Positions 7,033 to 20,013 of a DNA stretch of 64,000 nucleotides are shown here, piece after piece. Position numbers and translations under genes: made by a program. The notes beneath the pieces are model-generated. The model saw nothing but the letters and a program-made list of their open reading frames with translations. It made no database searches and was not told the origin of the DNA. This DNA is from a virus. How positions within the stretch are numbered: the stretch's first letter is position 1; each line of letters starts with the position of its first letter. The stretch is from positions 21,300-85,299 of the IMG/VR virus record IMGVR_UViG_3300020810_000992; one strand, written 5' to 3'.

Positions 7033-7043
7033 GTGTATAAATA
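7013..7043 (+). promoter_or_regulatory. promoter of hsp20 (sigma70 -35/-10 overlapping a TATAAATA late box)
   Basis: TTGACA 7013-7018, N17, TATAAATA 7036-7043. Confidence 0.7.
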
Positions 7044-7048
7044 ATAAT

Positions 7049-7135
7049 GTAGGAACAGGAACGAATCCTGCTTTTACTGGAGTGCCCATAAGGGACTCTA
7101 ATATTAATCTTGCTTATTAAAGGAGAAAAAACATG
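7049..7135 (+). promoter_or_regulatory. ROSE-like RNA thermometer in hsp20 5' UTR
   Basis: Three hairpins; last pairs TCTTGCT (7108-7114) with AGGAGA SD (7121-7126) leaving a bulged G. Confidence 0.7.
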
Positions 7136-7612
7136 ACAAGACTAACAACTCTAGACCTACCTTCATTCCACAGAGCAACAATTGGCTTTGATAGAATGTT
7201 TAACGAATTAGAAAGAAACTTTGCTAATTCACAATCAAACGGTTACCCACCATACAACATAGCACAGATCAACGACGATGAGTATATGATCTCATTGGCA
7301 GTCGCTGGCTTTGGTATGGATAATCTTACAGTTGAAAAAGATGGTAACATTCTTAAGATTGAAGGTATCGCTCCTAAGGGAGGCGAAGAAGTAAACTACC
7401 TACATAAAGGAATCGGCGGACGCAACTTCCGTAGAGAGTTTACACTTGCTGATCACGTCGATGTAGTTAGCGCAGGCCTTGAACTAGGTATGCTTAACAT
7501 TCATCTAAAGCGTGAAGTACCGGAAGCACTAAAGCCTAAGCGTATTGAAATTACTGACTGGAATGGTCATGTGCAGGAAGCACACGATGTAATTGAAAAC
7601 GATAGCAAGTAA
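7133..7612 (+). CDS. ibpA: small heat shock protein Hsp20 (IbpA-like)
   Basis: IGFDRMF, YPPYNI, LAVAGF, YLHKGIGGRNFRREFTLA, GMLNIHL. Confidence 0.93.
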   Translation: MTRLTTLDLPSFHRATIGFDRMFNELERNFANSQSNGYPPYNIAQINDDEYMISLAVAGFGMDNLTVEKDGNILKIEGIAPKGGEEVNYLHKGIGGRNFRREFTLADHVDVVSAGLELGMLNIHLKREVPEALKPKRIEITDWNGHVQEAHDVIENDSK

Positions 7613-7624
7613 ACAGAAAGTCTA

Positions 7625-7646
7625 GGGGGAGTGTAACAACTCCCCC
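7625..7646 (+). terminator. GC-rich hairpin (terminator or mRNA stability element)
   Basis: GGGGGAGT-N6-ACTCCCCC; no U-tract. Confidence 0.5.
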
Positions 7647-7662
7647 ATCTAAGGAGAATTAA

Positions 7663-7968
7663 ATGAGTACAAATACTGATGTTGTAATTGAAGAACAGAT
7701 TAAAGAAGTAGTCCTTGATCCAGGCAAATTTAAAGTTATCATTTTAAATGATAATGTTACTCCTATGGATTTTGTTGTAGAAATCTTATCTGAAATATTT
7801 AAACATTCTTTTCAAACAGCACAAGAACTAACTATGGCCATTCATTCAAAAGGATCTGCTGTAGTAGGACTGTATACATATGAGATTGCAGAGCAAAAAT
7901 CAGTAGAAGCAACTAAACTTTCTCGAGAACATGGTTTCCCGTTACAAGTAGCAATTGAAAAAGAATAA
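7663..7968 (+). CDS. clpS: Clp protease adaptor ClpS
   Basis: KVIILNDNVTPMDFVV, IHSKGSAVVGLYTYEIAE, FPLQ. Confidence 0.92.
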   Translation: MSTNTDVVIEEQIKEVVLDPGKFKVIILNDNVTPMDFVVEILSEIFKHSFQTAQELTMAIHSKGSAVVGLYTYEIAEQKSVEATKLSREHGFPLQVAIEKE

Positions 7969-8016
7969 TATAAATACACTGTATAGAATGATTAACTTTT
8001 ACATAAGGAGTAAAAA

Positions 8017-8604
8017 ATGAGTTTAGCAAGTTTAACGCAGGCCGCTCACCAGAACGCAGAACGTCAAGAATTCGCAAGAAAAATGATGTCGGGTGAAATG
8101 AGCGACGCAGAATATAAAACATATTTGTGGAACATGTGGCTGGTATATGATGTACTAGAAGATGTTGCATTAAGTATGGGCGTATTTGGTCCACAAGACC
8201 TATCTATGCCAGATGATGATCTACCACTAGATGGCTTAACACAAGCTGATGATATTATGGCAGACTTTATCGAATTAGGGGGTGATGCAGATAATCCACC
8301 TGTTACTGTAGACGCAGTCGAAGAATACAGAAGCCATATTATTAAAAATTGTCAGCACGACAAAGATAAACTAATGGCACATGTTTATGTAAGACATATG
8401 GGCGACTTGAGCGGTGGACAAATGATTGCCGCAAAAGTACCTGGGTCAGGTAAAATGTATCAGTTTGCTGATATGACACACAGTGTCGATGAAATGAAAA
8501 ATGCTATTCGTAAGCGTACAAAAGACAGTATGGCCGACGAAGCTAATAAAGCATTTGAATTTTCTATTAAGATTTTTGAGCAACTAAACGATCTAAGCTA
8601 CTAG
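8017..8604 (+). CDS. hemO: heme oxygenase (HemO/Ho1 type)
   Basis: N-terminal His (AHQNAE), AHVYVRHMGDLSGGQ, DEANKAF. Confidence 0.92.
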   Translation: MSLASLTQAAHQNAERQEFARKMMSGEMSDAEYKTYLWNMWLVYDVLEDVALSMGVFGPQDLSMPDDDLPLDGLTQADDIMADFIELGGDADNPPVTVDAVEEYRSHIIKNCQHDKDKLMAHVYVRHMGDLSGGQMIAAKVPGSGKMYQFADMTHSVDEMKNAIRKRTKDSMADEANKAFEFSIKIFEQLNDLSY

Positions 8605-8605
8605 T

Positions 8606-9286
8606 ATGATCTGGAATCAGCTCATCGAATGTAAAGACCAAATCATTCAAGCATTTGACCACCACGGTGTTGAAATAAATGAACCAGGAATGGAACATTT
8701 TAATCAACCCGATGGTGGTTGGATTAATAGAGTTTGGCAAAACGAAGATGTCCGTAGGGCGCACATCGACGTAGTTGATGCTAGAGATACAAAAGGTTTA
8801 TGGATGATGCATGTTTGCATTTTCCCACAACTTAACAATGATGCACCGATTTATGGCTTTGATGTAATTGCAGGCAAAAATAAGATGACGGGTGCATTCC
8901 ATGATTTTAGTCCAACATCAAATCCTAATCATCCAATGATCAACTGGTATGAACATTCAGTAAAAGACTTTATACCTGAAAAGAAAAGAGAACTACCTGA
9001 ATGGGCAACTAACATCTTTACTCCTAGTATGGTTGCGGCAAGCAATGTACGAGAAGAAGAGTCAGCAGTTATTATTGATCTTGCACTTAACAATCTATAC
9101 GAATACTTAGACCAAGTAGGTGAGTATAATGGTTCAGGTAACGTTGATATTGTTACAGCCGGTCAAAACTATTATTGTCATAACCAGCAACAAAATCCAC
9201 ATACTCCTCGTGTAATGAAATCATTAGGACTTGCAGAAGCAGATGTAGACAAGTTTTGTACTGATATGCTTTTCCCTAAATTATAA
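8606..9286 (+). CDS. pcyX: ferredoxin-dependent bilin reductase, PcyX-like
   Basis: RRAHIDVVD, WMMHVCIFP, PIYGFDVIAG, GAFHDFSP, RELPEWA, QQQNPHT; adjacent to hemO. Confidence 0.85.
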   Translation: MIWNQLIECKDQIIQAFDHHGVEINEPGMEHFNQPDGGWINRVWQNEDVRRAHIDVVDARDTKGLWMMHVCIFPQLNNDAPIYGFDVIAGKNKMTGAFHDFSPTSNPNHPMINWYEHSVKDFIPEKKRELPEWATNIFTPSMVAASNVREEESAVIIDLALNNLYEYLDQVGEYNGSGNVDIVTAGQNYYCHNQQQNPHTPRVMKSLGLAEADVDKFCTDMLFPKL

Positions 9287-9369
9287 TAAATAAGTTAGTA
9301 ATGTACAGCGTGAGGGCTATACTTTATTAGGCTTCACATAATACTCCAACTAAAATCCTCCATAATTAA

Positions 9370-9377
9370 TATAAATA
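9370..9377 (+). promoter_or_regulatory. T4-like late promoter for the csgF-csgG cluster
   Basis: TATAAATA about 45 nt upstream of csgF start. Confidence 0.65.
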
Positions 9378-9421
9378 TGTATATGAGATAGATTGGGCAA
9401 TAATTCTCATGGAGGGCAATC

Positions 9422-9901
9422 ATGAAGAAACTTATTATACTTACTGGAATCCTGATTTCAGCTACAGTTACAGCAAATGCAAGTGAATTAGGTTGGGGTT
9501 TTAAATCGCCAGCATTTCATTATGGAAACGGTTACAGTACACACGTTCTAAGTGTAGAACAACTCCAGCATAATCGTAAACAGGATCTAGCAGATAAGCG
9601 TAGAGCTGAAGAAGATCGTCTAGCAAGAGAGCTAGAAAACACAACCTTAAACAAATTTCTTAAAAACGTAGAATCACGTATATACGCAACACTATCTAAG
9701 CAGATGGTAGACAATATGTTTGCTACCTGTTCAGATGCTAGTGGTGCAACTTGTCCTACAACAGGAACAGCAGAAATAGAAGGTTCAACTATTACTTGGA
9801 CCAAAGACACAACTACAGGAAGTATTAACCTTGTTGTTGTAGATGCAGATGGTAGTACAACAGAAATTACTATCCCAGGATCAGGGGAGTTTAATTTCTA
9901 A
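9422..9901 (+). CDS. csgF: curli assembly protein CsgF-like
   Basis: Signal peptide, ASELGWGFKSPAF..GNG, C-terminal DGSTTEITIP; overlaps csgG start. Confidence 0.8.
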   Translation: MKKLIILTGILISATVTANASELGWGFKSPAFHYGNGYSTHVLSVEQLQHNRKQDLADKRRAEEDRLARELENTTLNKFLKNVESRIYATLSKQMVDNMFATCSDASGATCPTTGTAEIEGSTITWTKDTTTGSINLVVVDADGSTTEITIPGSGEFNF

Positions 9902-10704
9902 TGAAAGCATTAATATTAGCAATATCCTTAGTACTACTTGGCGGATGTAGTACTATGCAAGAAAGCCTAAATATTAAAGACAATGCAGGTCCTGCAACTG
10001 TACAGAGAGCTCCACTTGCAGATAGAATGAATGCAGTACCAGAGTTAGATGGTAAGAAAATTACTATTGCTGTATACAGTTTTCAAGATAAAACAGGACA
10101 GCGCAAACCAGCAGACCATATTGCTAACCTAAGTTCAGCTGTAACACAGGGTGCTGAAGTTTGGGTTATTAAAGCACTACAAGATGTAGGTAGTGGCACT
10201 TGGTTTGATGTAGTTGAGCGTGTTGGTATGGATAACTTAATTAAAGAACGTCAATTAATACGTAACACAAGAGACAATTATGAAAAAGATTTAAAGGAAG
10301 GTCCTACTCCGTTAAAGCCAATGGTATTTGCAGGATTAATTTTAGAAGGCGGAATAGTAGGATATGACAGCAATGTTACCATGGGTGGTGCAGGTGCAAG
10401 ATATTTAGGAATAGGCGCACAAACAGAGTATCGTGTAGATAATGTTACTGTTGTAATGCGCCTTGTGAGCGTTAGTACTGGGCGAGTACTAATGAGCGTG
10501 GCTACGCAAAAGACGATAGCCAGTTATAGATCCGGAGCGGATGTATTCAAGTTCTTTGACTTAGGTACTAAATTAGTTGAAACAGAAACAGGGTACTCGG
10601 TCAATGAACCAGTCAATTATGCAGTTAGGGCCGCCATAGAGGCCGGCGTAATTGAATTAATTTATGAGGGAAAAGAGAGGACTTTATGGAAGTTCAAGAA
10701 ATGA
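9901..10704 (+). CDS. csgG: curli secretion channel lipoprotein CsgG
   Basis: Lipobox LGGC; AVYSFQDKTGQRK, SSAVTQG, WFDVVER, LIKERQLIR, EGGIVGYD, GGAGARYLGIG, NEPV. Confidence 0.93.
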   Translation: MKALILAISLVLLGGCSTMQESLNIKDNAGPATVQRAPLADRMNAVPELDGKKITIAVYSFQDKTGQRKPADHIANLSSAVTQGAEVWVIKALQDVGSGTWFDVVERVGMDNLIKERQLIRNTRDNYEKDLKEGPTPLKPMVFAGLILEGGIVGYDSNVTMGGAGARYLGIGAQTEYRVDNVTVVMRLVSVSTGRVLMSVATQKTIASYRSGADVFKFFDLGTKLVETETGYSVNEPVNYAVRAAIEAGVIELIYEGKERTLWKFKK

Positions 10705-10716
10705 GGGAAAAACTAA

Positions 10717-11430
10717 ATGAAACAATACCTAATAATGCTGTTCCTAGCATTGTTAATGGTACCTGGACCATCCGCGGCTAACGAAATATATATCGACCAA
10801 GTTGGGGATAATCTAGACCTAGACATTGTACAAGATGGATCGAGTAATCAGTTCGGTGATAGCACAGCTGATATTGATCTTGACGGGGACGATATGACAT
10901 TTTCAATTACTCAAACCGGAAATAACAACGACATTGCCGCTATTATTAATGGTAACACATACACAGGTACTTGGAGTTTTACAGGTGATTATAACACTGT
11001 AGACCTTACTTGTGATAGTGGTGGAGTAAATTGTGAAAACATAACACTAAACATTACAACTACAGGAGATACTAACGACTTCACTTTTGCTATTGGTGGT
11101 ACATCTAATTCAGATGGTTCAACTATAGCATTTACTGTAACAGGTGACAACAACATCATAGATACAACAGTTGATGGGGAAAGTGTAGCACTTGCTGTAA
11201 CAATTAACAACTCTTCAAGTCTAGCAACAACCAGTGCTAACGGAGATGAGGGAGTTGCAGTTACTATTGACTCAAGTGGTGATGGAAATACTAACGGACA
11301 TTCAGTTACATTGAGCGTCACCGGTGGTGGTAGCACGTATGATATTAATCAAAGCGGTATTAACGATAATACCGTAAATGCTACATTCAGCGGCGACAAT
11401 CATGATGTGGATATAACACAGAGTGACTAA
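10717..11430 (+). CDS. secreted curlin-like beta-repeat protein
   Basis: Signal peptide; ~22 aa repeats of (Q/T)xGxxN; G/D/N/T-rich. Confidence 0.75.
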   Translation: MKQYLIMLFLALLMVPGPSAANEIYIDQVGDNLDLDIVQDGSSNQFGDSTADIDLDGDDMTFSITQTGNNNDIAAIINGNTYTGTWSFTGDYNTVDLTCDSGGVNCENITLNITTTGDTNDFTFAIGGTSNSDGSTIAFTVTGDNNIIDTTVDGESVALAVTINNSSSLATTSANGDEGVAVTIDSSGDGNTNGHSVTLSVTGGGSTYDINQSGINDNTVNATFSGDNHDVDITQSD

Positions 11431-12566
11431 TGTTTAGAGCTTCACTTATTACTATCCTGATTGGCTTATATATGCCATCTGCCGCTATCGCAGTTCCTGC
11501 AGGTGCGATTGGCGAAATTAAAGGCAGTGGTGCTATTGAAAGAGGCAAGGATGTAATTGAGGGCACAAGTGGCGTAGGTATCGAAATGAACGATACCGCC
11601 GTCACAGCCAATGGTCGTATGAGAATCGATTTCAAAGACGAAACAAGAGTTGATTTAACAGAACATGCTAGATTAACTATTGACGAATTTGTATACGATC
11701 CTGCAAACGATGTTGGTTCACTATCGATCAAGGCAACACTGGGAGGTGTACGTTATGCTTCAGGGCAAATAGCAAAACGTTACCAACAGAATGTTAAGAT
11801 CAAAACGCCGTCTGCTACAATCGGAGTTAGGGGAACCGATTTTGTAATAGTAGTAGATGAGATGGGTGGTAGTATGATTACTCTTCTACCTTCATGTGAT
11901 GTAACAGGTTACTGTTACACAGGTGAGATAGAAGTGCAAACCGATGCGGGCTTTGTCGTCATGAATCAAGCCTTCCAATCAACCATGACTTCCACTAGGA
12001 TGCAACCTCCATCTCCCCCTTTATTATTAGATATAGATGAAAGTATGATTAATCAATTACTAATACTTCGTAAGCGTAATCCATATCAAGAAGAAGAATA
12101 TGAAATTAAAAAAAGATCAATGGCTATGTACGATTTCCTAGGACTTGACTTTTTAGAGTTTGACGGTTTATCTGATGATGCTTTGAATGTTGACGACATA
12201 TGGGTAACAACATTAGATGAAAGTGATTACTTACTAGGCGAATTACTATACGATATGCTAGATCAACTCAATGCCGCGCTGATGGCTATTTTTAAGAGTG
12301 AACTGGACAGGCAAAATGAAACATTACTTAAAGAAGAAGATTCAAGTATGTATGGATTTAATCCAGAGACAGGCATAAGGCTAAACAAAACAGGCACAGG
12401 TTGGCATTGGACGAGGGAAGACAATGGCGGCAACAATTACATCAGCATTAAGATGCATGATCAATATGGTTATTCACTTAATGTACAACAAGGAGACTTT
12501 GCTACTTATGACTACCGTTTGGGCACGAGCACTAATAATAGCATTGACATTGTTCAGTCAAACTAG
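11430..12566 (+). CDS. secreted FecR-domain protein
   Basis: Signal peptide; IDFKDETRVDLTEHARLTID, IKTPSATIGVRGTDF, GEIEV. Confidence 0.85.
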   Translation: MFRASLITILIGLYMPSAAIAVPAGAIGEIKGSGAIERGKDVIEGTSGVGIEMNDTAVTANGRMRIDFKDETRVDLTEHARLTIDEFVYDPANDVGSLSIKATLGGVRYASGQIAKRYQQNVKIKTPSATIGVRGTDFVIVVDEMGGSMITLLPSCDVTGYCYTGEIEVQTDAGFVVMNQAFQSTMTSTRMQPPSPPLLLDIDESMINQLLILRKRNPYQEEEYEIKKRSMAMYDFLGLDFLEFDGLSDDALNVDDIWVTTLDESDYLLGELLYDMLDQLNAALMAIFKSELDRQNETLLKEEDSSMYGFNPETGIRLNKTGTGWHWTREDNGGNNYISIKMHDQYGYSLNVQQGDFATYDYRLGTSTNNSIDIVQSN

Positions 12567-13290
12567 TTGGGCTAACGAAATATACATTGATCAAGCAGGC
12601 GATAACCTTGTGTTGACTGTTGACCAAAAAGGTTCTAACAATCAAGTAAAAGGTTATACAACTGTAGATGCTCCTATCGACGGTGCTAATAATACAGTCG
12701 TAATCAATCAAGGCTATGAAGGCAACAATTTGATCCGAATGGATATAAATGGTACTAACAATGATGTCGCAGTAAATCAAGAGCGTACAACCGCTGGCGG
12801 ATACGATACAGATAGTTACGGATATCATTCATCAAGGATAGAACTAGACGGCAATGGTAATACAGTAGATATTACACAACGCAACAACAGTGGTAGTTCA
12901 GCAGGACACACTAGTAATGTTAGATTCCGTGGAGACGACAATAGTTTGACTACACTTCAAACAGGCACAGGTGGTGCCAACGGACATCTAAGTTGGGTCT
13001 ATACACACGATACTGAGTCTAATAATACAGTAGACATATTTCAAAACAGCGATAGTGCTGATCACAAAGCAACTGTTAGTCTTTATACAGACGGTAACAA
13101 AGTAGATATCAATCAAACAGGCGCAACACAAAACAATGCTTATGTACTATTTTCAAGCAGTGCATCAGGACCTACAGATTTTACACTAAATCAAAACGGT
13201 GGAGACACCTACGGCAATGCTGACACAGGATCATACGCTACAATAAGTTGTGGCAATGTAGGAGGCTGTATAGTTACAGTCTCACAATAA
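12508..13290 (+). CDS. second secreted curlin-like beta-repeat protein
   Basis: Likely start ATG 12508 (ORF track 12424); signal peptide then ANEIYIDQAGDNL, near-identical to the first curlin; IxGxxNxVxIxQ repeats. Confidence 0.75.
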   Translation: MTTVWARALIIALTLFSQTSWANEIYIDQAGDNLVLTVDQKGSNNQVKGYTTVDAPIDGANNTVVINQGYEGNNLIRMDINGTNNDVAVNQERTTAGGYDTDSYGYHSSRIELDGNGNTVDITQRNNSGSSAGHTSNVRFRGDDNSLTTLQTGTGGANGHLSWVYTHDTESNNTVDIFQNSDSADHKATVSLYTDGNKVDINQTGATQNNAYVLFSSSASGPTDFTLNQNGGDTYGNADTGSYATISCGNVGGCIVTVSQ

Positions 13291-13312
13291 TATATTTTTG
13301 GAGGGCAAAAAA

Positions 13313-13699
13313 ATGAAATATATTTTAATGGGCATAGCTCTGGCGGTACTTTTCGTATCACCCGCTTGGGCTAACAAAAACAACGAAATAATGAAACAGT
13401 GTGTACAACAGTTCGCACCAGACTATAACAGAGCCAGTGCTTGTTACTTTGATTGGAAGACAGGTGACAACGCTGTAAAACTAGCAGAGATGCGTGATTT
13501 TCTTAAGCACAATCCACGCTATAGATTTCCAGGACAAAGTCTAAACAAGTGTTGGGGTAAGCCTCGTGAAATGCCATTTGAAAGTGCATACATTGAACGC
13601 ACAGGTGACGGCTTTAGAGCAGGTGTAAGTTACAAAGATAAACTGCCAGCAGGATGCTACGAAACAGCACCATGGGATAACCGTGATGTGGAAAACTAG
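13313..13699 (+). CDS. small secreted protein with four Cys
   Basis: GAGGG SD, signal peptide ending AWA. Confidence 0.65.
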   Translation: MKYILMGIALAVLFVSPAWANKNNEIMKQCVQQFAPDYNRASACYFDWKTGDNAVKLAEMRDFLKHNPRYRFPGQSLNKCWGKPREMPFESAYIERTGDGFRAGVSYKDKLPAGCYETAPWDNRDVEN

Positions 13700-13838
13700 T
13701 ATTGTAATGGTAACCTTCCTTTTCCTAATGCTGTATGGCATATTTGCATACAGTGGCACAAGTCAGATGTATTGGGAAAACGTAGGACCGCAATGGGATC
13801 GTATGCTTAACCCGTGTTCTTACAAAGTTTGTGATTAA
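13686..13838 (+). CDS. 50 aa membrane/secreted peptide (not in ORF track)
   Basis: MWKTSIVMVTFLFLMLYGIFAYSGTSQMYWENVGPQWDRMLNPCSYKVCD; fills the gap after the previous gene. Confidence 0.5.
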   Translation: MWKTSIVMVTFLFLMLYGIFAYSGTSQMYWENVGPQWDRMLNPCSYKVCD

Positions 13839-13896
13839 CATATATGATAATGTAAAATCATTGTACAATAAATAATAGTAGGACGAGGGCAAAACG

Positions 13897-13913
13897 TCCA
13901 TAACGAGGGTAAC
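13897..13913. repeat. 17 bp inverted repeat, left copy (covers RBS of 13917 gene)
   Basis: TCCATAACGAGGGTAAC is the exact reverse complement of 15874-15890. Confidence 0.9.
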
Positions 13914-13916
13914 AAC

Positions 13917-15827
13917 ATGAAAAAGAAACTTTTGGCAAGCGCCGTTCTGGCGGCTTTGCTTTCAACTACGGCTCTAGCCGACACATCAAGCATGAATTCG
14001 AGCGTAACTGGTATGGGTATACTTGAAAACGAATGGGTACGTGCAGGAGTAAACGGAACAGCAGGTACATTTGGTTCAGGAGGCGGCACAAGCCCAGGAC
14101 TATTATTTGATCCAACAGGTACAGGTACATTCAATCCAAGTTACGACTACCTAACACCAGGATCACCGTTTGACGGTTTTAGTGTTAAAGTAGATGGCAC
14201 AAACTACTATAATAACAATGCCAGCGGTACTGCAATCGCAAATGACGGCAACGGACTTACAGACGGTGAAAACAGTTTAAGTTGGACAGGCGGAGTAGAT
14301 AGTGTGTTTAATATTACAAACACTTATTCACTTGCACCAGCAACACCATATGTAGATATTTCATCAAGTATAACAATGTTAACTGATGCAACAACACTAT
14401 CATTTGGTAAGTATATCGATCCAGACAGCCAAGGTATGCCTGGCGATAGTTCAGCAACAGACAACGTACTAGGTTATGGTGTTATTCCAAGCACAAACGT
14501 TGCGTTCTCAGAAGCAACTGTAAGTCGTTATGCACTGGGTATCTACACAACAGACACAAACGTAACAGCAGGTGTTGAAGGGTGGACACAAGAAGCAGAC
14601 GGATATGAAGGTACAAACTATACAGATGCAGATGGCAATCCTGTAAACTATGGTACTGGTGATGACACCATTGGTATTAGTTGGACTTGGACAGGTGTTA
14701 GCACAGGCGATATTTTAACAGCAAGTTATGCTTATATCTTTGGACCAAGTGCATTTGATGCGGCAAGTGATGCTGTAGAAGGCGGAGCAGGTGGTGGTGA
14801 CACTACAACAACAGACAGCTGGGGTACAGTTGAAGATGTTGGTTCAGCAACTGATGCGGCAAGTGGTGGAAGTGAGCCAGTTATCACCTACAGTGATCCT
14901 GTTGTAGACACAGATCGTCCTGTACTAACAGCAAGTATCACACACCACACAGCAAGTGAAACTGTTACTGTGCAAACTATTGACAGAGAAAAAACAACAA
15001 CTGTTACAACACCAATGGAAATTATTACTTACACAGATGGTGTAGAAACTGCTAGAACAGACACAACTAGCGACATCGTAACAACTGTAACTGATCCAGG
15101 ATCATTCACAGGACGTATTGATCAAGCGGCAACTGCACAAGACGTTGTAGGTAGCACACTAAGAACGTTAGACTTCAAAAACATTCAAGGTATTAGATCT
15201 AACAGCAAGTACGACAATGGCATGAGCGGTAGCACAACTGGTGCCGTTATTGGTGGTAACAAAGAACTAGAAAACGGTGTTACTATTTCAGGTGGCTTTA
15301 CAAGACTAGGCACAGCTCTAACAGGTAACGGTGATTCGGTTGATGCAGAAACTACAGCATTTGCTGGTGGAGTTGCTAGAGATGGTGTTAGTGTAGAACT
15401 ACGTCATGCAATGACAGACTACACAATGTCACGTACTATCGGCGACTTTGCTAATACAGGCAAAACAGCAGGTACAGACACAAGTGCTAGAATTATGTAC
15501 TCACCAGAAACAGGCAAAGTAAATCCTGTGTTCGGTTACACACGTGGTAAGCGTACAATGGACGGTTATGAAGAAGCAGGTTCAATCCAGAGTGCTAGAA
15601 CAGTAGCAGAAACAGATGAAATGTATGGTTATGGTACTGTAGGACTACGTGGCGATCTAGGACTAGTTGACTTTACGGCAATGCATCACACAGACGGTGT
15701 TAATGATATTTCATTAGGCTTAGAAAAAGATACAGGCGATGTTACTTGGAGAGTAGAAGGCACAAGAAGCATGACAGACTTAGGTTCAACTAATGCCATT
15801 TCTGCAGGATTGGTAATTAAGTTCTAA
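13917..15827 (+). CDS. secreted/outer-membrane protein with autotransporter-like C-terminal beta-barrel
   Basis: Signal peptide; G/T/D-rich passenger; Thr-rich linker; amphipathic C-terminal strands ending GLVIKF. Confidence 0.6.
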   Translation: MKKKLLASAVLAALLSTTALADTSSMNSSVTGMGILENEWVRAGVNGTAGTFGSGGGTSPGLLFDPTGTGTFNPSYDYLTPGSPFDGFSVKVDGTNYYNNNASGTAIANDGNGLTDGENSLSWTGGVDSVFNITNTYSLAPATPYVDISSSITMLTDATTLSFGKYIDPDSQGMPGDSSATDNVLGYGVIPSTNVAFSEATVSRYALGIYTTDTNVTAGVEGWTQEADGYEGTNYTDADGNPVNYGTGDDTIGISWTWTGVSTGDILTASYAYIFGPSAFDAASDAVEGGAGGGDTTTTDSWGTVEDVGSATDAASGGSEPVITYSDPVVDTDRPVLTASITHHTASETVTVQTIDREKTTTVTTPMEIITYTDGVETARTDTTSDIVTTVTDPGSFTGRIDQAATAQDVVGSTLRTLDFKNIQGIRSNSKYDNGMSGSTTGAVIGGNKELENGVTISGGFTRLGTALTGNGDSVDAETTAFAGGVARDGVSVELRHAMTDYTMSRTIGDFANTGKTAGTDTSARIMYSPETGKVNPVFGYTRGKRTMDGYEEAGSIQSARTVAETDEMYGYGTVGLRGDLGLVDFTAMHHTDGVNDISLGLEKDTGDVTWRVEGTRSMTDLGSTNAISAGLVIKF

Positions 15828-15840
15828 GTAAATAACTGTA

Positions 15841-15906
15841 GAGAGGCACAGTTAGTTCTCCGCATTTAATAACGTTACCCTCGTTATGGAAGCTACTGTG
15901 CCTCTC
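15841..15906 (+). ncRNA. candidate structured small RNA containing the right copy of the 17 bp inverted repeat (15874-15890)
   Basis: GAGAGGCACAGT/ACTGTGCCTCTC 12-bp closing stem, inner ATAACG-TTACCCT-CGTTAT hairpin, TAAATA box at 15829-15834. Confidence 0.55.
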
Positions 15907-15927
15907 GTCATGAGTGCTAAATACTGT

Positions 15928-17985
15928 ATGACGAAGTATATCACACATTGGACAATAGCGTTTGTAACGGCTGTAGTTATGATACTCATACACTACGGGG
16001 ATGGTACCCTTGTCCAAACGGCTCGGCTGAAGCAATTTGATCTACTTCAAACATCGGATCAGCCACTATTATCCCAAGATATTGCGGTAGTCACCATCGA
16101 CGAAACAGCTATTGAAAAGTACGGGCAATGGCCTTGGAAGCGAGATGTTCTAGCAGACATAGTCTGGAGACTTCGAGAAGCAGGTGCTGGTATTATAGTG
16201 ATACCTATTATCATGTCAGAGTCTGATAGACTTGGCGGCGACATGACATTAGCCGAAGCACTTGTAGGGAACGGTGTAGTTATTGCCCAAACGGGAACTA
16301 CGTCTGGAGTTAATCGTAATGCTGTCCCTAGAGGCGTTGCGAAAATTGGTGATCCGTTGCCATTTATGTTTGAATGGCCAGGGATGTTAGGACCAATACC
16401 ATTGCTAGGAGAAAATGCCGACGGTGTAGGAGTGTTAAACACTAATCCAGAAATCGACGGCGTGGTACGTAGAGTACCTCTCCTTGTACGTGTTCAGGAT
16501 GAAACGTACCCTGCTTTAGCAGTGGAGGTAATACGACTTGCAACAGGAGCACCTAGTTATCAGGTTAAAGCTAACCAAGGCGGCATTGAGGCAATTCGTG
16601 TACCAGGTTATCCGACAATAAAAACAGATCCAAATGCACAAGTTTGGTTACGCTGGAACAAACAATTTGAAACTGTTAGCATAGCTACAGAAGATCTAAG
16701 TATTGTAGAAGGCAAAACTGTTATAATCGGAGTAACCGCAGAAGGCATAGGCGGTTTAATCGCTAGTCCGCTTGGACCACAATTTAATTATATTCCATCA
16801 GCAGTGACCCTACAAACAGTAATAGACGGAGATCAAATTCAACGTCCTTACTGGGCACTACTTGCAGAATTGATCACAACAGCAGTCTTGGGCATAGCCC
16901 TTGTGCTACTTGGACGATTTGCACCTTACTGGTTAGTTGGAATTAAATTAATTGTATTTGTGGGAGGACTCGCTTATGTTGCTCATTATGCATGGGCAAA
17001 CTACCTATACCTTTTAGATGTAACAATGCCAATAGTAACTGTTATTCTTGTAGGATTACATGCAGTATTCAATAGATTCGTAAGCGAATTCTTTGAAAAA
17101 CAAAAAATCAAAAAACAATTTGCAGGTTACGCTTCGCCAACTGTTGTTCGTATGCTACAGGAAAATCCAAGTTTAATCAAAGACGGTATGAAGAAAGAAG
17201 TTTCAATTTGTTTCTCAGACCTACGTGGCTTTACACCACTAGGTGAATCGTTTGGTGATGATGTAAAAGGTCTTACTCGCATTATGAATGGGTATATGGA
17301 CAGCATCACACAGCCTATACTTGATGCTGATGGTATGGTTATCAAATACATTGGTGATGCAAGTATGCATGTACACAATGCACCTATTGATGATCCTCAT
17401 CATCCTCGAACAGCAGTCGAAACAGGACTGCTCATGTTAAAGGCAGTGGAGAAATTTAATGAAACAGTTATTATTCCGGAGGGGCGTCCCCCTGTTGGTA
17501 TGGGTGCTGGCATTAATACTGGTCTTGGTTATCTTGGAGAAATGGGATCGACGGCTAGACACAGCTATGACGTCCTTGGAGATGCAGTCAGTACAGCCGC
17601 TCGTATTGAAAGCAAGTGTAAAGAGTACGGATGTTTATTACTTGTTGGAGAAAACACATACGAAGCAACCAAAAACAATTTCTTCTACCTCAAAGTAGAT
17701 GATTTACAAGTTAAAGGTAAAAGTGTTGGACTAAGCATTTATACAGTGCTTGATGGTATGAATAAAACTTCAGATCGTAAGAGCCAAAAACTACATGAGC
17801 AAATGCACGAAGCATATAGATCTCAGCAGTTCGATGAAGCTATTTGGCTTTGCGAAAGATTAATGAGACACTTTGATGGCAAGATGGAAGGTTATTACAC
17901 AATGTGGATTGAACGCTGTGAGTATATGAAAACTCAAGAACTTCCTAAAGACTGGAACGGCGTCTTTATCGCCACAAGTAAGTAA
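15928..17985 (+). CDS. CHASE2-domain class III adenylate cyclase
   Basis: IDETAIEKYGQWPWKR, DGVVRRVPL (CHASE2); three TM helices; FSDLRGFT, KYIGDA, GINTG, YDVLGDAVSTAARIE; likely start 15928 (ORF track 15886). Confidence 0.93.
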   Translation: MTKYITHWTIAFVTAVVMILIHYGDGTLVQTARLKQFDLLQTSDQPLLSQDIAVVTIDETAIEKYGQWPWKRDVLADIVWRLREAGAGIIVIPIIMSESDRLGGDMTLAEALVGNGVVIAQTGTTSGVNRNAVPRGVAKIGDPLPFMFEWPGMLGPIPLLGENADGVGVLNTNPEIDGVVRRVPLLVRVQDETYPALAVEVIRLATGAPSYQVKANQGGIEAIRVPGYPTIKTDPNAQVWLRWNKQFETVSIATEDLSIVEGKTVIIGVTAEGIGGLIASPLGPQFNYIPSAVTLQTVIDGDQIQRPYWALLAELITTAVLGIALVLLGRFAPYWLVGIKLIVFVGGLAYVAHYAWANYLYLLDVTMPIVTVILVGLHAVFNRFVSEFFEKQKIKKQFAGYASPTVVRMLQENPSLIKDGMKKEVSICFSDLRGFTPLGESFGDDVKGLTRIMNGYMDSITQPILDADGMVIKYIGDASMHVHNAPIDDPHHPRTAVETGLLMLKAVEKFNETVIIPEGRPPVGMGAGINTGLGYLGEMGSTARHSYDVLGDAVSTAARIESKCKEYGCLLLVGENTYEATKNNFFYLKVDDLQVKGKSVGLSIYTVLDGMNKTSDRKSQKLHEQMHEAYRSQQFDEAIWLCERLMRHFDGKMEGYYTMWIERCEYMKTQELPKDWNGVFIATSK

Positions 17986-17992
17986 GTATTAA

Positions 17993-18109
17993 CTAGTCCT
18001 TACAATCATCACAATTACACTTAAAGCATACATCGTTTACACAATGTTCGCAATCTTTATCCCTATGACACTCGTGACCGCAATCGCATTCTTTTTCAGA
18101 GTCTGTCAT
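17993..18109 (-). CDS. metallothionein-like Cys/His-rich peptide (not in ORF track)
   Basis: MTDSEKECDCGHECHRDKDCEHCVNDVCFKCNCDDCKD; TAATG coupling to upstream gene. Confidence 0.6.
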   Translation of the reverse strand: MTDSEKECDCGHECHRDKDCEHCVNDVCFKCNCDDCKD

Positions 18110-18444
18110 TATTTTTTTCCAGTGGAGTCAAATACTTGACTACGGCTTTGGTACTTGTTAACTAGGCTTTCTAGTTCTTTTGCTTGTTCTTCTGTAAGAT
18201 TTTTATCTAGCAAATGTTTATGTTCTAGTACCATTGACAATTTCATATTCATACGAATCATGTCGTTATCTAACATTCGTACACGATCAACCAGTTTAAT
18301 AAGTGTACCCATTGTTTCGCCTATAACTGGATCAATAGTTTCCGTTACCCAACCCCATATAAAGTAGATAAAATATCCCATGCCGCCCGCGGCAACAATA
18401 GGAAATCCTAAGTCTTTAATTGTTTGTGCTAGATCTAGCTCCAT
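18109..18444 (-). CDS. small membrane protein (YvrJ-like), paralog of 19735-20013
   Basis: LGFPIVAAGG TM helix then DRVRMLDNDMIR coiled coil. Confidence 0.65.
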   Translation of the reverse strand: MELDLAQTIKDLGFPIVAAGGMGYFIYFIWGWVTETIDPVIGETMGTLIKLVDRVRMLDNDMIRMNMKLSMVLEHKHLLDKNLTEEQAKELESLVNKYQSRSQVFDSTGKK

Positions 18445-18664
18445 GTTTTTTGCCCTCTTCGTATTTCATTATTAGTGTTGATAAATGATCTGACTTTCTA
18501 AGTATACCGTTTTCGTCTACAACAAATACATCGCCAGGTCTATATAGTGCATTAGTTTTGGGGCTGCCGTCTCGATTCTTGCCCATAACTTCTCCAGGCC
18601 AATCACCCTTGACAGTAAAACTACCGTCTGCAAAACTTTCTACATTATAGTCCATCCAAATCAT
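18416..18664 (-). CDS. hypothetical protein
   Basis: ORF in minus-strand operon; likely start MIWMDY. Confidence 0.55.
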   Translation of the reverse strand: MIWMDYNVESFADGSFTVKGDWPGEVMGKNRDGSPKTNALYRPGDVFVVDENGILRKSDHLSTLIMKYEEGKKHGARSSTNN

Positions 18665-18665
18665 T

Positions 18666-18866
18666 TTACTTACTTCCACCAATATATCCACCAATGACAC
18701 CAATCAATCCTGTGACTGACATCTTCATTAGTGTAATAACACTTTCATCAACTGGTCTATTTTCTTCTAGTGCCACAATGTAGTCGCCTACAATAATAAC
18801 ACCTAACAGTAACAGTACTCCAGATGTAATCATTAGTACTACAATATCTTTAAAGTTTTTAATCAT
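18666..18866 (-). CDS. small two-TM membrane protein
   Basis: Two hydrophobic helices; AAGGA SD. Confidence 0.6.
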   Translation of the reverse strand: MIKNFKDIVVLMITSGVLLLLGVIIVGDYIVALEENRPVDESVITLMKMSVTGLIGVIGGYIGGSK

Positions 18867-18876
18867 AGTCTATTCC

Positions 18877-19713
18877 TTATTGCCTAATTGGTTTCTTTAT
18901 AATTGTTGGGAACGAATCTCGGTAATCAACTTTATAGATTGTTGGCACTTTAACTTTAAATTCATTACTAGTATAACCTAGATCTGAAGGCTTCAGCGTT
19001 ACAAACAGCGTTGTGTGATGTGTTCCGCTTCCCTCTCTCTTGTAACCACAATTAATAGCAAATTTAAATCCGTTTGTCGCATCAACAGTGTATGTTGTCA
19101 CAAGTTCTACGGCTGGATTGGTTTTGAGTTGGTAATTATTTACTCCCCACCACAATTCAAAACCTTCTGGATATACCTCTGGACTTTCGTCCCAATGAAA
19201 AGTGTAGATTCCTTTACTGGATTGCCCGGTTGTATCCGACTGGCTATGTTCATTGGTTTGTGAATGAGTGATCTCAGTACTACCTTCTACAGACAAATCG
19301 TCAGTGCCGACTTTGACCTTCACGCCTACTGTTACTGAGTTAGTGTATGATACACTGTTTGATGTAGTGCTTGACGAATCTACTACGGCTTCGTATGTAT
19401 AGTGTTGCTGATGAACATTTTCATCTAGTGTGATTGGTTGTGGATAATTACTGAATCCGCCTGCGTTTTCTGTCCATGTTACAGTCATATTACTGTCGAA
19501 ATAATTCTGATACACATGGTTGTAATTGTCATCGAAAAAATACAGTGTAGATTGATCTGGATATACTCCCGAATTGTGGTAATGGTATTTTTTACCTTTG
19601 TCATGAGTCCAAGTTCTACAAGTATGCTCTGGTAATTTATATGTTCCACATTGTTTATTAGTTGCTCTATCTAAAAATTCTGCTACTAGTGCGTTCATGT
19701 TTTCGTAAATCAT
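18877..19713 (-). CDS. putative aerolysin/ETX-MTX2-like beta-pore-forming protein
   Basis: S/T-rich strands flanking alternating hairpin SVTVGVKVKVG-TDDL-SVEGSTEITHS. Confidence 0.5.
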   Translation of the reverse strand: MIYENMNALVAEFLDRATNKQCGTYKLPEHTCRTWTHDKGKKYHYHNSGVYPDQSTLYFFDDNYNHVYQNYFDSNMTVTWTENAGGFSNYPQPITLDENVHQQHYTYEAVVDSSSTTSNSVSYTNSVTVGVKVKVGTDDLSVEGSTEITHSQTNEHSQSDTTGQSSKGIYTFHWDESPEVYPEGFELWWGVNNYQLKTNPAVELVTTYTVDATNGFKFAINCGYKREGSGTHHTTLFVTLKPSDLGYTSNEFKVKVPTIYKVDYRDSFPTIIKKPIRQ

Positions 19714-19734
19714 TTTGTTTCCTTTTTAAAGTTT

Positions 19735-20013
19735 TTAATCACGTCTTGCATCTTCTTTGCCTTCATTTGCCGCAATACGATCTACATTGGGTTTTACGCC
19801 TAATGAATATGATAATAGTGCATCAATTTTAACTAAATCGTTGTTCATAGTTTGAACTCGATTATCCAATTGTTTAATAATATTTTTGAGAGTAGTTACT
19901 GAGTCAGTAACTCCTGCTAAAATAAATTTTAATGTTAGAAAAACAAATCCGCCAGCTGCCAATGCGCCAGCGATTGGAAAACCAACATCTTTAGCTAATG
20001 TAAAAAAATCCAT
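19735..20013 (-). CDS. small membrane protein (YvrJ-like), paralog of 18109-18444
   Basis: VGFPIAGALAAGG TM helix then DNRVQTMNNDLVK; TAAATA box upstream. Confidence 0.65.
   Translation of the reverse strand: MDFFTLAKDVGFPIAGALAAGGFVFLTLKFILAGVTDSVTTLKNIIKQLDNRVQTMNNDLVKIDALLSYSLGVKPNVDRIAANEGKEDARRD

Follow-up and report, generated by a model that had tools for sequence, protein, structure and literature searches.

Genes of the curli, or type VIII, secretion system have been described in several pelagiphages, and an enlarged version of this gene set was found here in a block of nine genes at positions 9422-17985 of a 64,000-nucleotide (nt) stretch of viral DNA, hereafter referred to as the window, which covers bases 21300-85299 of the 85,299-base IMG/VR virus record IMGVR_UViG_3300020810_000992 (CheckV completeness of 24%). 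According to the available part of PMC9599517, the sole relevant paper found in the literature on CsgG and FecR in phages, podo- and myo-pelagiphages carry genes for CsgF, CsgG, CsgA/B, FecR, a second CsgA/B and an adenylate cyclase, the last being 'frequently' present in podophages. This cassette was detected at all 65 surveyed ocean stations and was found expressed in metatranscriptomes. The accessible portion of PMC7029224 describes a 'curli operon' of pelagimyophages, together with the idea of a 'sibling capture'. For the phage Melnitz, the part of PMC9004378 that could be consulted proposes a pore resembling a pinholin or a secretin, describes the phage as devoid of csgA/B and nowhere mentions FecR or the cyclase. 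The GenBank record of the same phage (locus L001, positions 10067-12861) is annotated with two 'curlin associated repeat' proteins, a FecR-domain protein and a cyclase.

The core six-gene block is thus not new. The same order is found in Melnitz (gp99-104) and HTVC008M (gp014-019), as well as in the phage contigs L003 and L005, and the succession csgF-csgG-curlin-FecR-curlin, followed at a variable distance by the cyclase, is kept across dozens of phage contigs. The initial annotation, made from the DNA alone, had considered the chain leading from sensor to second messenger as poorly described in phages; this view is not supported, since the csgF-csgG-curlin-FecR-curlin-cyclase block is already reported in the part of PMC9599517 that was available. 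The window shares with the pelagiphage regions (the available parts of PMC9599517 and PMC7029224; HTVC008M; Melnitz) their genes, their order, a T4-like myophage carrier and the absence of CsgE. It differs by three extra genes located between the second curlin gene and the cyclase gene, which encode a 128-amino acid (aa) protein, a 50-aa protein and an autotransporter. The carrier also appears larger than the pelagiphages, with a record of 85 kb at an estimated completeness of 24% and a relative (L003) on a 236-kb contig, and its habitat is the salt marsh. CsgG and FecR are 48-52% and 43-46% identical, respectively, to those of the cultured pelagiphages.

On its gene content, the carrier is a T4-like myophage. 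PHROG matches in the window include a clamp loader, a baseplate-wedge connector, tail fibres, a head protease and a thymidylate synthase, among others, and this T4-like phage has five tRNA genes. The phage context assumed at the outset is therefore supported both by the nature of the IMG/VR record and by T4-type clamp loader, baseplate and tail-fibre genes. The reading favoured here, with a probability of roughly 0.55, is that the block represents the published curli-FecR-cyclase cassette, enlarged in a large T4-like phage of coastal and salt-marsh waters, by means of which the infected cell would be re-surfaced and its cyclic AMP (cAMP) re-set. Three features are new in this copy: a variable slot holding two small exported proteins and an autotransporter with a predicted passenger of a sugar-binding type, a Ser at the position of a catalytic Asn in this cyclase lineage, and a FecR-fold protein devoid of an anti-sigma part, which resembles the retention module of MpIBP and LapA and is kin to giant RTX adhesins. 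The features of the block are as follows (ORF, open reading frame):

9370-9377, + strand: TATAAATA box, a T4-type late-promoter-like motif, 45 nt 5' of the csgF ATG
9422-9901, + strand: csgF, 159 aa, predicted to be exported (Pfam CsgF)
9901-10704, + strand: csgG, 267 aa, predicted outer-membrane lipoprotein channel of type VIII secretion (Pfam CsgG)
10717-11430, + strand: curlin-repeat protein 1, 237 aa, predicted to be exported (Pfam Curlin_rpt)
11430-12566, + strand: FecR-fold protein, 378 aa, predicted to be exported (Pfam FecR and structural model)
12508-13290 (ORF open from 12424), + strand: curlin-repeat protein 2, 260 aa (Pfam Curlin_rpt)
13313-13699, + strand: 128-aa protein with Cys residues, predicted to be exported (conservation in relatives)
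13686-13838, + strand: 50-aa protein with an N-terminal hydrophobic segment, overlapping the 128-aa gene (conservation in relatives)
13917-15827, + strand: predicted type Va autotransporter, 636 aa (AlphaFold model and Pfam match of a homologue)
15928-17985 (ORF open from 15886), + strand: CHASE2 class III adenylate cyclase, 685 aa (Pfam CHASE2 and Guanylate_cyc)

The nine ORFs are co-directional and densely packed, with overlaps of 1 nt between csgF and csgG, 1 nt between curlin 1 and FecR, and 59 nt between FecR and curlin 2. The most likely start codons, judging from the sequence, are ATG 12508 for curlin 2, which has AAGGAG in front, ATG 13313 for a 133-aa ORF whose product would thus be shortened to 128 aa, and ATG 15928 for the cyclase. 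All gene identities proposed in the initial annotation hold, six being confirmed by Pfam and that of the autotransporter by a fold model and a homologue. The statement that nearly all products are exported agrees with a hydropathy scan combined with reading by eye, which revealed a signal-peptide-like hydrophobic start in seven of the eight proteins encoded upstream of the cyclase, and a membrane-anchor-like start in the 50-aa protein.

Curli proteins

Three elements of type VIII secretion, a CsgG channel, CsgF and exported curlin-repeat subunits, are encoded in the block. The CsgF product matched Pfam CsgF (2.7e-11; 44.2 bits for a cut-off of 25.8) and phrog_35372 (1.7e-52), and a comparison with PDB sequences returned no meaningful match. 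The csgG product matched Pfam CsgG (3.2e-51), aligned over its full length (residues 1-265) with Escherichia coli CsgG (3x2r; 6.9e-56), and carries the lipobox LLGGC. HfaB, a holdfast anchor, was considered as an alternative identity for this CsgG-like gene and rejected, the NCBIfam HfaB model scoring 44 bits and that of CsgG 212 bits. Curlin-repeat protein 1 (Pfam Curlin_rpt, 3e-5; 24.3 bits for a cut-off of 20.7) is rich in N, G, S, T and D, with K and R nearly absent, and curlin-repeat protein 2 (9.8e-8; 32.3 bits for the same cut-off) begins with a signal peptide.

The likeness to the E. coli curli system (csgBAC and csgDEFG) thus comprises the full-length alignment of CsgG, a member of the CsgF family and exported curlin-repeat subunits. 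In contrast to E. coli, CsgE was not found in the 85-kb phage record, and a general Pfam scan gave no CsgC or CsgD match among the cluster ORFs. The phage subunits, of 237 and 260 aa, also exceed those of E. coli in length and are distant from the CsgA and CsgB equivalogs, and the phage block adds a FecR-fold protein, an autotransporter and a cyclase.

The FecR-fold protein

The FecR-fold protein was identified by its Pfam FecR match (8.7e-9). Its structural model (predicted local distance difference test, pLDDT, of 72) comprises a beta domain (residues 25-190) and a small beta domain (309-376), joined by an acidic, helical region of low confidence (200-305) in which a D-x-L-x-x-D-x-L motif is invariant. 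Residues 52-209 of the model superimpose on the cell-surface signalling domain (CCSSD) of PupR (6ovm) with a Z score of 15.3 and a root-mean-square deviation (rmsd) of 2.6 over 135 aa, the match spanning PupR residues 111-249 only. Residues 21-115 superimpose on the retention module of MpIBP (5ix9; Z 10.2, rmsd 2.5, 73 of 76 residues), for which Foldseek gave an E value of 0.055 and a TMt of 0.72. The sole hydrophobic segment (residues 4-27) is a signal segment and the beta domain begins at residue 25, leaving no room for a cytoplasmic anti-sigma domain; hydropathy and the model indeed indicate neither an N-terminal cytoplasmic anti-sigma domain nor the accompanying membrane span. Moreover, no partner of the extracytoplasmic-function (ECF) sigma or TonB-dependent transducer type was seen among the cluster ORFs in a general Pfam scan.

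The protein of the window ends with I-x-I-x-Q. An end of the form phi-x-phi-x-Q, which resembles that of curlin 1, occurs in 54 of 56 distinct complete FecR homologues, and this loose motif also terminates 179 of 1105 control frames. Since profile-profile comparison of the C-terminal domain with the curlin 1 family found no match beyond 8 terminal columns (probability of 4.9%), the curlin-like end is considered as a short motif rather than as shown homology.

Relatives of this protein are abundant, with 4199 found in metagenomes at E<=0.001, and the phage FecR profile matched 137 of 401 alphaproteobacterial genomes. Of the 30 top-ranking bacterial sites, 26 had a Pfam FecR match and 18 belonged to open frames longer than 1000 aa, the longest reaching 6679 aa. 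Repeats of the RTX, cadherin, Calx-beta, He_PIG or FG-GAP type were detected in 14 (first ~800 aa), six were located directly behind a TolC-like gene, and one (L134) beside CHASE2. The best alphaproteobacterial matches of the phage protein are therefore N-terminal domains of long RTX or cadherin proteins. According to the available part of bioRxiv 10.1101/198937, 5ix9 is the N-terminal domain of MpIBP and served as a template for the LapA retention module, which was proposed to plug a TolC-like pore, the channel of which is traversed by a flexible stretch. The model of the phage protein suggests the same plug-domain fold as in MpIBP and in LapA of Pseudomonas fluorescens. As in the plug-linker-adhesin layout given for LapA in the consulted part of that preprint, it is followed by a flexible stretch and a distal domain. 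Unlike the adhesins of type I secretion systems, the phage protein is small (378 aa), Sec-exported and has neither RTX repeats nor a type I secretion signal, and the adjoining pore is CsgG instead of a TolC-like protein. No paper combining retention module, RTX adhesin and FecR was found among the literature matches listed. The product of the phage FecR gene is better read as an adaptor of the envelope, with kinship to the N-terminal domains of adhesins, than as an iron regulator.

The CHASE2 adenylate cyclase

The last gene of the block encodes a protein with a CHASE2 domain (Pfam, 1e-38), flanked by hydrophobic segments at residues 17-43 and 322-399, and a Guanylate_cyc domain (2.7e-16). Class III cyclases of the PDB matched it down to 8e-19, and full-length phmmer comparison gave 312-368 bits with the 12 best-scoring of 34 sampled alphaproteobacterial CHASE2 receptors. 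Residues D445, D491, K487, D566 and R573 are invariant in an alignment of 13 phage cyclases, and Ser occupies the position of Asn in the motif GD.VN.A.R in eight of them, including those of the window and Melnitz. If the canonical catalytic set is, as we assume, two metal-binding Asp, a Lys/Asp pair for ATP and an Asn/Arg pair for the transition state, five of the six residues are present in the window cyclase, with Ser replacing Asn. The same replacement was observed in 40 of the 44 IMG/VR cyclases in which the motif could be located (seven further sequences had no motif match), and Asn was found in all 30 bacterial CHASE2 cyclases with a located motif. As these alignments show, a changed catalytic residue is present in most myophage cyclases. 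The phage lineage with Ser also has a C-terminal extension of ~80 aa. HTVC008M, a close relative of Melnitz, has another cyclase type, with Asn and no C-terminal extension.

Between Melnitz and the window, protein identity reaches 66% for the cyclase, compared with 48% for CsgG and 43% for FecR, so that the cyclase gene seems to have been exchanged between phage lineages. At the DNA level, the Melnitz cyclase gene (L001:12877-14928) and window positions 15886-17985 are 78% identical over ~700 nt. No paper on a bacteriophage CHASE2 adenylate cyclase was found in the literature, and the available text of PMC9599517 contains neither 'CHASE2' nor 'autotransporter', with the reservation that its Fig. 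S3 and Data Set S1 may list autotransporter-bearing variants.

The autotransporter and two small exported proteins

The 636-aa protein had no match in Pfam (E<=0.01), NCBIfam or PHROG. A homologue in L007 (45% identity) matched Pfam Autotransporter PF03797 at 1.1e-7, this domain being carried by one of the 120 listed relatives. The family profile retrieved no PDB sequence at E<=1, and a fold search was therefore needed. The AlphaFold model (pLDDT of 74, and ~90 for residues 400-636) predicts a signal peptide, a passenger (~28-300), a beta-hairpin stalk, a helix (403-417) and a 12-strand barrel ending with VIKF. The barrel resembles the NalP translocator (Z 26.6, rmsd 1.9 A over 237 residues; Foldseek 4e-8 with 1uyn) and EstA (Z 24.5). 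With Z scores of 14-18, the passenger resembles the N-terminal domains of GH15, GH65 and GH94 enzymes and mutarotases, and is thus modelled as a galactose-mutarotase-like beta-supersandwich. As far as the model goes, such a fold commonly binds sugars and implies no catalytic role.

The predicted signal peptide, passenger, helix within a 12-strand barrel and terminal aromatic residue are shared with type Va autotransporters such as NalP, EstA, AIDA-I and Hbp. In contrast to these proteins, the passenger would be a beta-supersandwich and not a beta-helix or an esterase, the protein is phage-encoded, and the window protein itself falls below the Pfam threshold for PF03797. Relatives are numerous in metagenomes (1582 at E<=0.001). 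The autotransporter gene adjoins the cyclase in four of the five loci found with the autotransporter query, the copy in L004 lying alone among metabolic genes, and it occurs in 12 of 80 IMG/VR loci belonging to six distinct groups.

Both small ORFs are real genes, and those for the 128-aa and 50-aa proteins recur side by side in L003, L006 and L007. Identity with these three loci is 58-65% for the 128-aa protein, and 84% (L003) or 43% (L006 and L007) for the 50-aa protein. The 128-aa gene was detected in four of the 80 IMG/VR loci; its product had no family match in Pfam, NCBIfam or PHROG, and the best ESM atlas score (0.78) was unusable.

Conservation and linkage across phages

Scanning IMG/VR with a CsgG profile gave 552 confirmed stretches with a CsgG relative, the best 80 of which were kept as loci and analysed with local profiles. 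A FecR homologue was found 3' of csgG in 73 of the 80 loci, and the seven others are cut contigs that end 1056-1970 nt past the csgG start. Wherever 9.8 kb or more of downstream sequence was available, the cyclase was present (39 of 39 loci); in total it was found in 51 loci, in two of them inverted. FecR and cyclase genes are thus consistently co-located with csgFG, as the initial annotation required of its proposal. The gene order is kept across 62 distinct FecR sequences and at CsgG identities of 60-80%.

The interval between FecR and cyclase is the variable part of the cassette (195-5351 nt). Among the 92 ORFs located in this gap, 63 were submitted to Pfam, duplicates and the smallest being left out. 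The first ORF after FecR was a Curlin_rpt match in 22 of the 31 loci submitted, and other gap ORFs were small unknowns or the autotransporter. An ORF of exactly 160 aa with no Pfam match recurs in the gap of several phage lineages (L155, L157, L187, L223 and L229) and is missing from the window; similar ORFs of 154 aa and 163 aa occur in L214 and L176, respectively.

Co-variation was calculated for 39 non-redundant loci. FecR distances correlated with those of CsgG (r 0.75) and of the periplasmic CHASE2 part (r 0.48), the correlation between CsgG and CHASE2 being 0.25. Partial correlations were 0.74 for FecR-CsgG and 0.46 for FecR-CHASE2 given CsgG, values that no permutation out of 999 attained. 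In 988 of 1000 subsamples, CsgG was followed more closely by the C-terminal half of FecR than by the N-terminal half (r difference ~0.10), and the N-terminal half followed CHASE2 better than the C-terminal half in 970 of 1000 (r difference ~0.07), which is the reverse of the expectation from gene order alone. Complex prediction with the periplasmic CHASE2 part (residues 38-336) and mature FecR (22-378), based on separate alignments, had a score of 0.00 and gives no verdict either way.

Bacterial counterparts

When bacterial genomes, one for each species, were scanned with the CsgG profile, 79 loci were obtained. A phage-type CsgF was present in 13 of them, eight of which extend far enough to be informative; FecR and the cyclase occur in all eight. 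Several of the 79 loci are phage DNA mis-binned into metagenome-assembled genomes (MAGs): L016, L022 and L026 are T4-like phage contigs with genes for the gp45 clamp, the gp44 clamp loader, RegA and UvsX, and the mis-binned set also includes L009-L014 and L050. Because they are mis-binned, the labels of the MAGs (Sphingobacteriales, Rhodobacterales, Pirellulales, Legionellales and others) provide no host information.

None of the other 66 loci has a class III cyclase within 10 kb of csgG. A FecR-type gene adjoins the curli cluster in a single one of these (L064), and another FecR-type gene is found 8 kb off in L018. L064 lies on a 773-kb gammaproteobacterial contig, where positions 8533-14090 encode a curlin, a csgF-like product, CsgG, a 452-aa unknown, a 321-aa curlin-like protein and FecR, with no cyclase. 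This bacterial chromosome runs counter to the accessible part of PMC9599517, where FecR is said to be absent from bacterial curli operons.

CHASE2 was detected in 43 of the 101 alphaproteobacterial genomes sampled, and a FecR gene adjoins it in three of 35 alphaproteobacterial loci (1.5-kb flanks), a pairing which is therefore rare in this sample. The FecR-linked bacterial cyclases were considered as candidates for the nearest kin of the phage cyclase; phmmer comparison of the sampled alphaproteobacterial receptors showed that they are not the nearest. A CHAT-domain gene lies just 5' of the CHASE2 cyclase in L089 (3-1337) and L090 (2521-3930), with an MtxA-like gene in between in L090; CHAT-domain genes are thus a further repeated neighbour of CHASE2 receptors in bacterial genomes.

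Two described bacterial systems come closest to this pairing. A Burkholderia operon associates a LysM-FecR protein with a CHASE2 histidine kinase under the name 'BiofilmReg' (PMC5192318). In Sinorhizobium meliloti, as reported in the consulted part of PMC5498481, the FecR-domain gene smc02177 adjoins smc02178, a gene near cyaD1, and is not needed for signal perception, and deletion of CHASE2 in CyaD1 results in constitutive cAMP. Both resemble the phage block in having an exported FecR-domain protein without an anti-sigma part beside a CHASE2 receptor. The Burkholderia operon differs in its output, a histidine kinase, and in the LysM domain of its FecR protein. Unlike the bacterial pairs, that of the phage is split by curlin 2 and the variable slot, and is joined to a secretion system.

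Possible role of the cassette

In the favoured reading, the lipoprotein CsgG and CsgF would form an outer-membrane channel in the infected cell, through which the two curlin-repeat proteins would exit to give rise to surface fibres. The FecR-fold protein, presumably made in step with the curlins because its gene overlaps both curlin genes, would act as a periplasmic adaptor or anchor within the fibre and pore apparatus. It would be tied first to that side, and would also be the most likely contact of the CHASE2 domain. The autotransporter would show its sugar-binding-type beta-sandwich at the cell surface, and the inner-membrane cyclase would convert an envelope cue into cAMP, provided that its site with Ser for Asn is active. 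The net effect would be a sticky, re-surfaced infected cell, with a physiology re-set through cAMP.

Several observations weigh against this scenario. The curlin-like proteins reach the Pfam repeat threshold only, scoring 16-21 bits with the NCBIfam CsgA and CsgB equivalogs, for which the cut-offs are 160-165. CsgE (PF10627, E<=0.01) was not found in the 85-kb record, which is 24% complete, the E. coli control being positive, nor was a cyclic-nucleotide (cNMP)-binding protein found in this record, itself a fragment. Judging from the alignments, the Ser-for-Asn change may make cAMP output weak or altered. The available part of PMC9004378 reports no clumping in Melnitz-infected cultures. The late-promoter-like box before csgF is not conserved among the 18 phage loci compared, and the contigs from RNA libraries described below possibly represent carried-over DNA, so that neither transcription, nor strand, nor transcript ends can be deduced from them. 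Finally, co-variation weakly supports a hinge role for FecR, and mirror-tree correlations of this kind are confounded by shared descent and linkage.

The initial annotation had proposed a trans-envelope chain in which the state of the fibre, or an outside cue, is relayed by the periplasmic FecR-fold protein to CHASE2 and switches cAMP, the fibres serving mainly as an antenna. This account is possible without being probable. The FecR fold is that of the PupR cell-surface signalling domain (Z 15.3) and the cyclase is found in 39 of 39 full loci, yet the FecR gene is packed with the curlin genes and split from the cyclase by a slot of variable size (195-5351 nt), L064 has FecR and csgG without a cyclase, and the available part of PMC9599517 reports the cyclase only 'frequently' in podophages. 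FecR genes do adjoin CHASE2 in bacteria (three of 35 alphaproteobacterial loci; L134) and in the Burkholderia LysM-FecR and CHASE2 histidine-kinase operon (PMC5192318). However, this adjacency is exceptional (3/35), and the three cyclases concerned are not nearest to that of the phage. The constitutive cAMP of CyaD1 without CHASE2 in S. meliloti speaks for the relay, and against it smc02177 is dispensable for signal perception (both from the part of PMC5498481 that was available). The FecR-CHASE2 partial correlation (0.46) and the better tracking of CHASE2 by the N-terminal half than by the C-terminal half of FecR agree with a relay, to which are opposed the absence of an anti-sigma domain, the lack of a sigma factor or transducer partner among the cluster ORFs and the Ser at the catalytic Asn of the cyclase.

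A role restricted to the pore, in which CsgG, with or without CsgF, would be a lysis-timing pore (as in the accessible part of PMC9004378) or a channel for nutrient or cofactor uptake (as in those of PMC7029224 and PMC9599517), is unlikely. It would fit with the missing CsgE gate in the 85-kb record, the endolysin-like gene at 127-708 of the window and the unclumped Melnitz cultures (PMC9004378, in the part available). It would also fit with the constriction loop of the phage CsgG, which differs in alignment from that of E. coli, NF being changed to NL and Tyr not kept, two elements that we take to be constriction-loop residues. Against it, CsgG, being an outer-membrane lipoprotein, cannot depolarize the inner membrane in the way of a pinholin, and two exported curlin-repeat genes are kept beside the pore, with curlin 1 throughout alignment A8 and a Curlin_rpt match after FecR in 22 of 31 loci. 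The lack of csgA/B in Melnitz stated in the consulted part of PMC9004378 is contradicted by its GenBank record, where 'curlin associated repeat protein' is listed twice, and a pore alone leaves FecR, autotransporter and cyclase unexplained. It is even harder to regard the block as inactive passenger DNA, captured from a bacterium and without any role in infection. Such an explanation is very improbable with every reading frame intact, 62 distinct FecR sequences in a gene order kept at 60-80% CsgG identity, 4199 FecR and 1582 autotransporter relatives in metagenomes (E<=0.001) and key residues invariant across the alignments.

A more daring proposal, put forward tentatively and still doubtful, is that 'FecR' is a pore-threading anchor and hinge rather than a regulator. 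By analogy with the MpIBP/LapA retention module under a TolC-like pore, its N-terminal domain may form a periplasmic plug, with the acidic linker passing through CsgG and the small C-terminal domain, which has its terminal phi-x-I-x-Q motif in common with curlin 1, holding or seeding the fibre on the outside. A plug that also touches CHASE2 would allow fibre load or pore occupancy to be read out as cAMP. If true, this would be a new kind of tether for type VIII secretion fibres, and would couple a surface fibre mechanically to a second messenger, in an arrangement invented or assembled in phages.

Whatever its mechanism, few gene sets for envelope remodelling are as widespread in marine phages as this cassette. 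The present copy adds little to this basic finding and rather sharpens the questions that it raises, by pointing to a variable cargo slot for surface proteins. If infected cells turn sticky and have their cAMP re-set, this would matter for attachment to particles, for the transmission of phages in dilute water and for carbon export.

Promoter-like box, occurrence in sequencing runs and neighbouring genes

The initial annotation had placed a sequence box upstream of the cluster, and this box was found, as TATAAATA, at 9370-9377. The motif is not enriched in the window, with four copies for 7.9 expected. Its three + strand copies are all intergenic, and boxes are also found in the spacers before HSP20 (7036) and heme oxygenase (7969). 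An exact copy within 200 nt 5' of csgF occurs in three of the 18 phage loci (window, HTVC008M and L012), and in L005 the motif lies at +15 relative to csgF. Within 9000-18600, a sigma-70 scan gave fewer promoter-like sites than in shuffles, and a terminator scan gave none that was convincing.

DNA of the window was present in 24 runs among those listed, mostly salt-marsh metagenomes of 2018 together with marine metagenomes, and nine of the 24 are on record as metatranscriptomes. Contigs spanning the cluster were obtained from four metatranscriptome libraries, with 0-2 differences per piece. In three of these RNA libraries, contigs are one base short at 13307, within the intergenic stretch that separates curlin 2 from the 128-aa gene; this position is outside any reading frame, and the missing base is either a population variant or a homopolymer error.

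Directly 5' of the cassette (7036-9286) are genes for HSP20, ClpS, heme oxygenase and a ferredoxin-dependent bilin reductase, the last two forming a pigment-synthesis pair in this phage. On the other side, the genes at 18109-20013 are on the - strand and converge on the cassette end. They include two small paralogues (111 and 92 aa), both matching phrog_18771, which flank two small ORFs and a 278-aa ORF without a known family. Further downstream, positions 40107-47291 are occupied by a 2394-aa ORF with tail-fibre PHROG matches, next to which are more large fibre and baseplate-connector genes.

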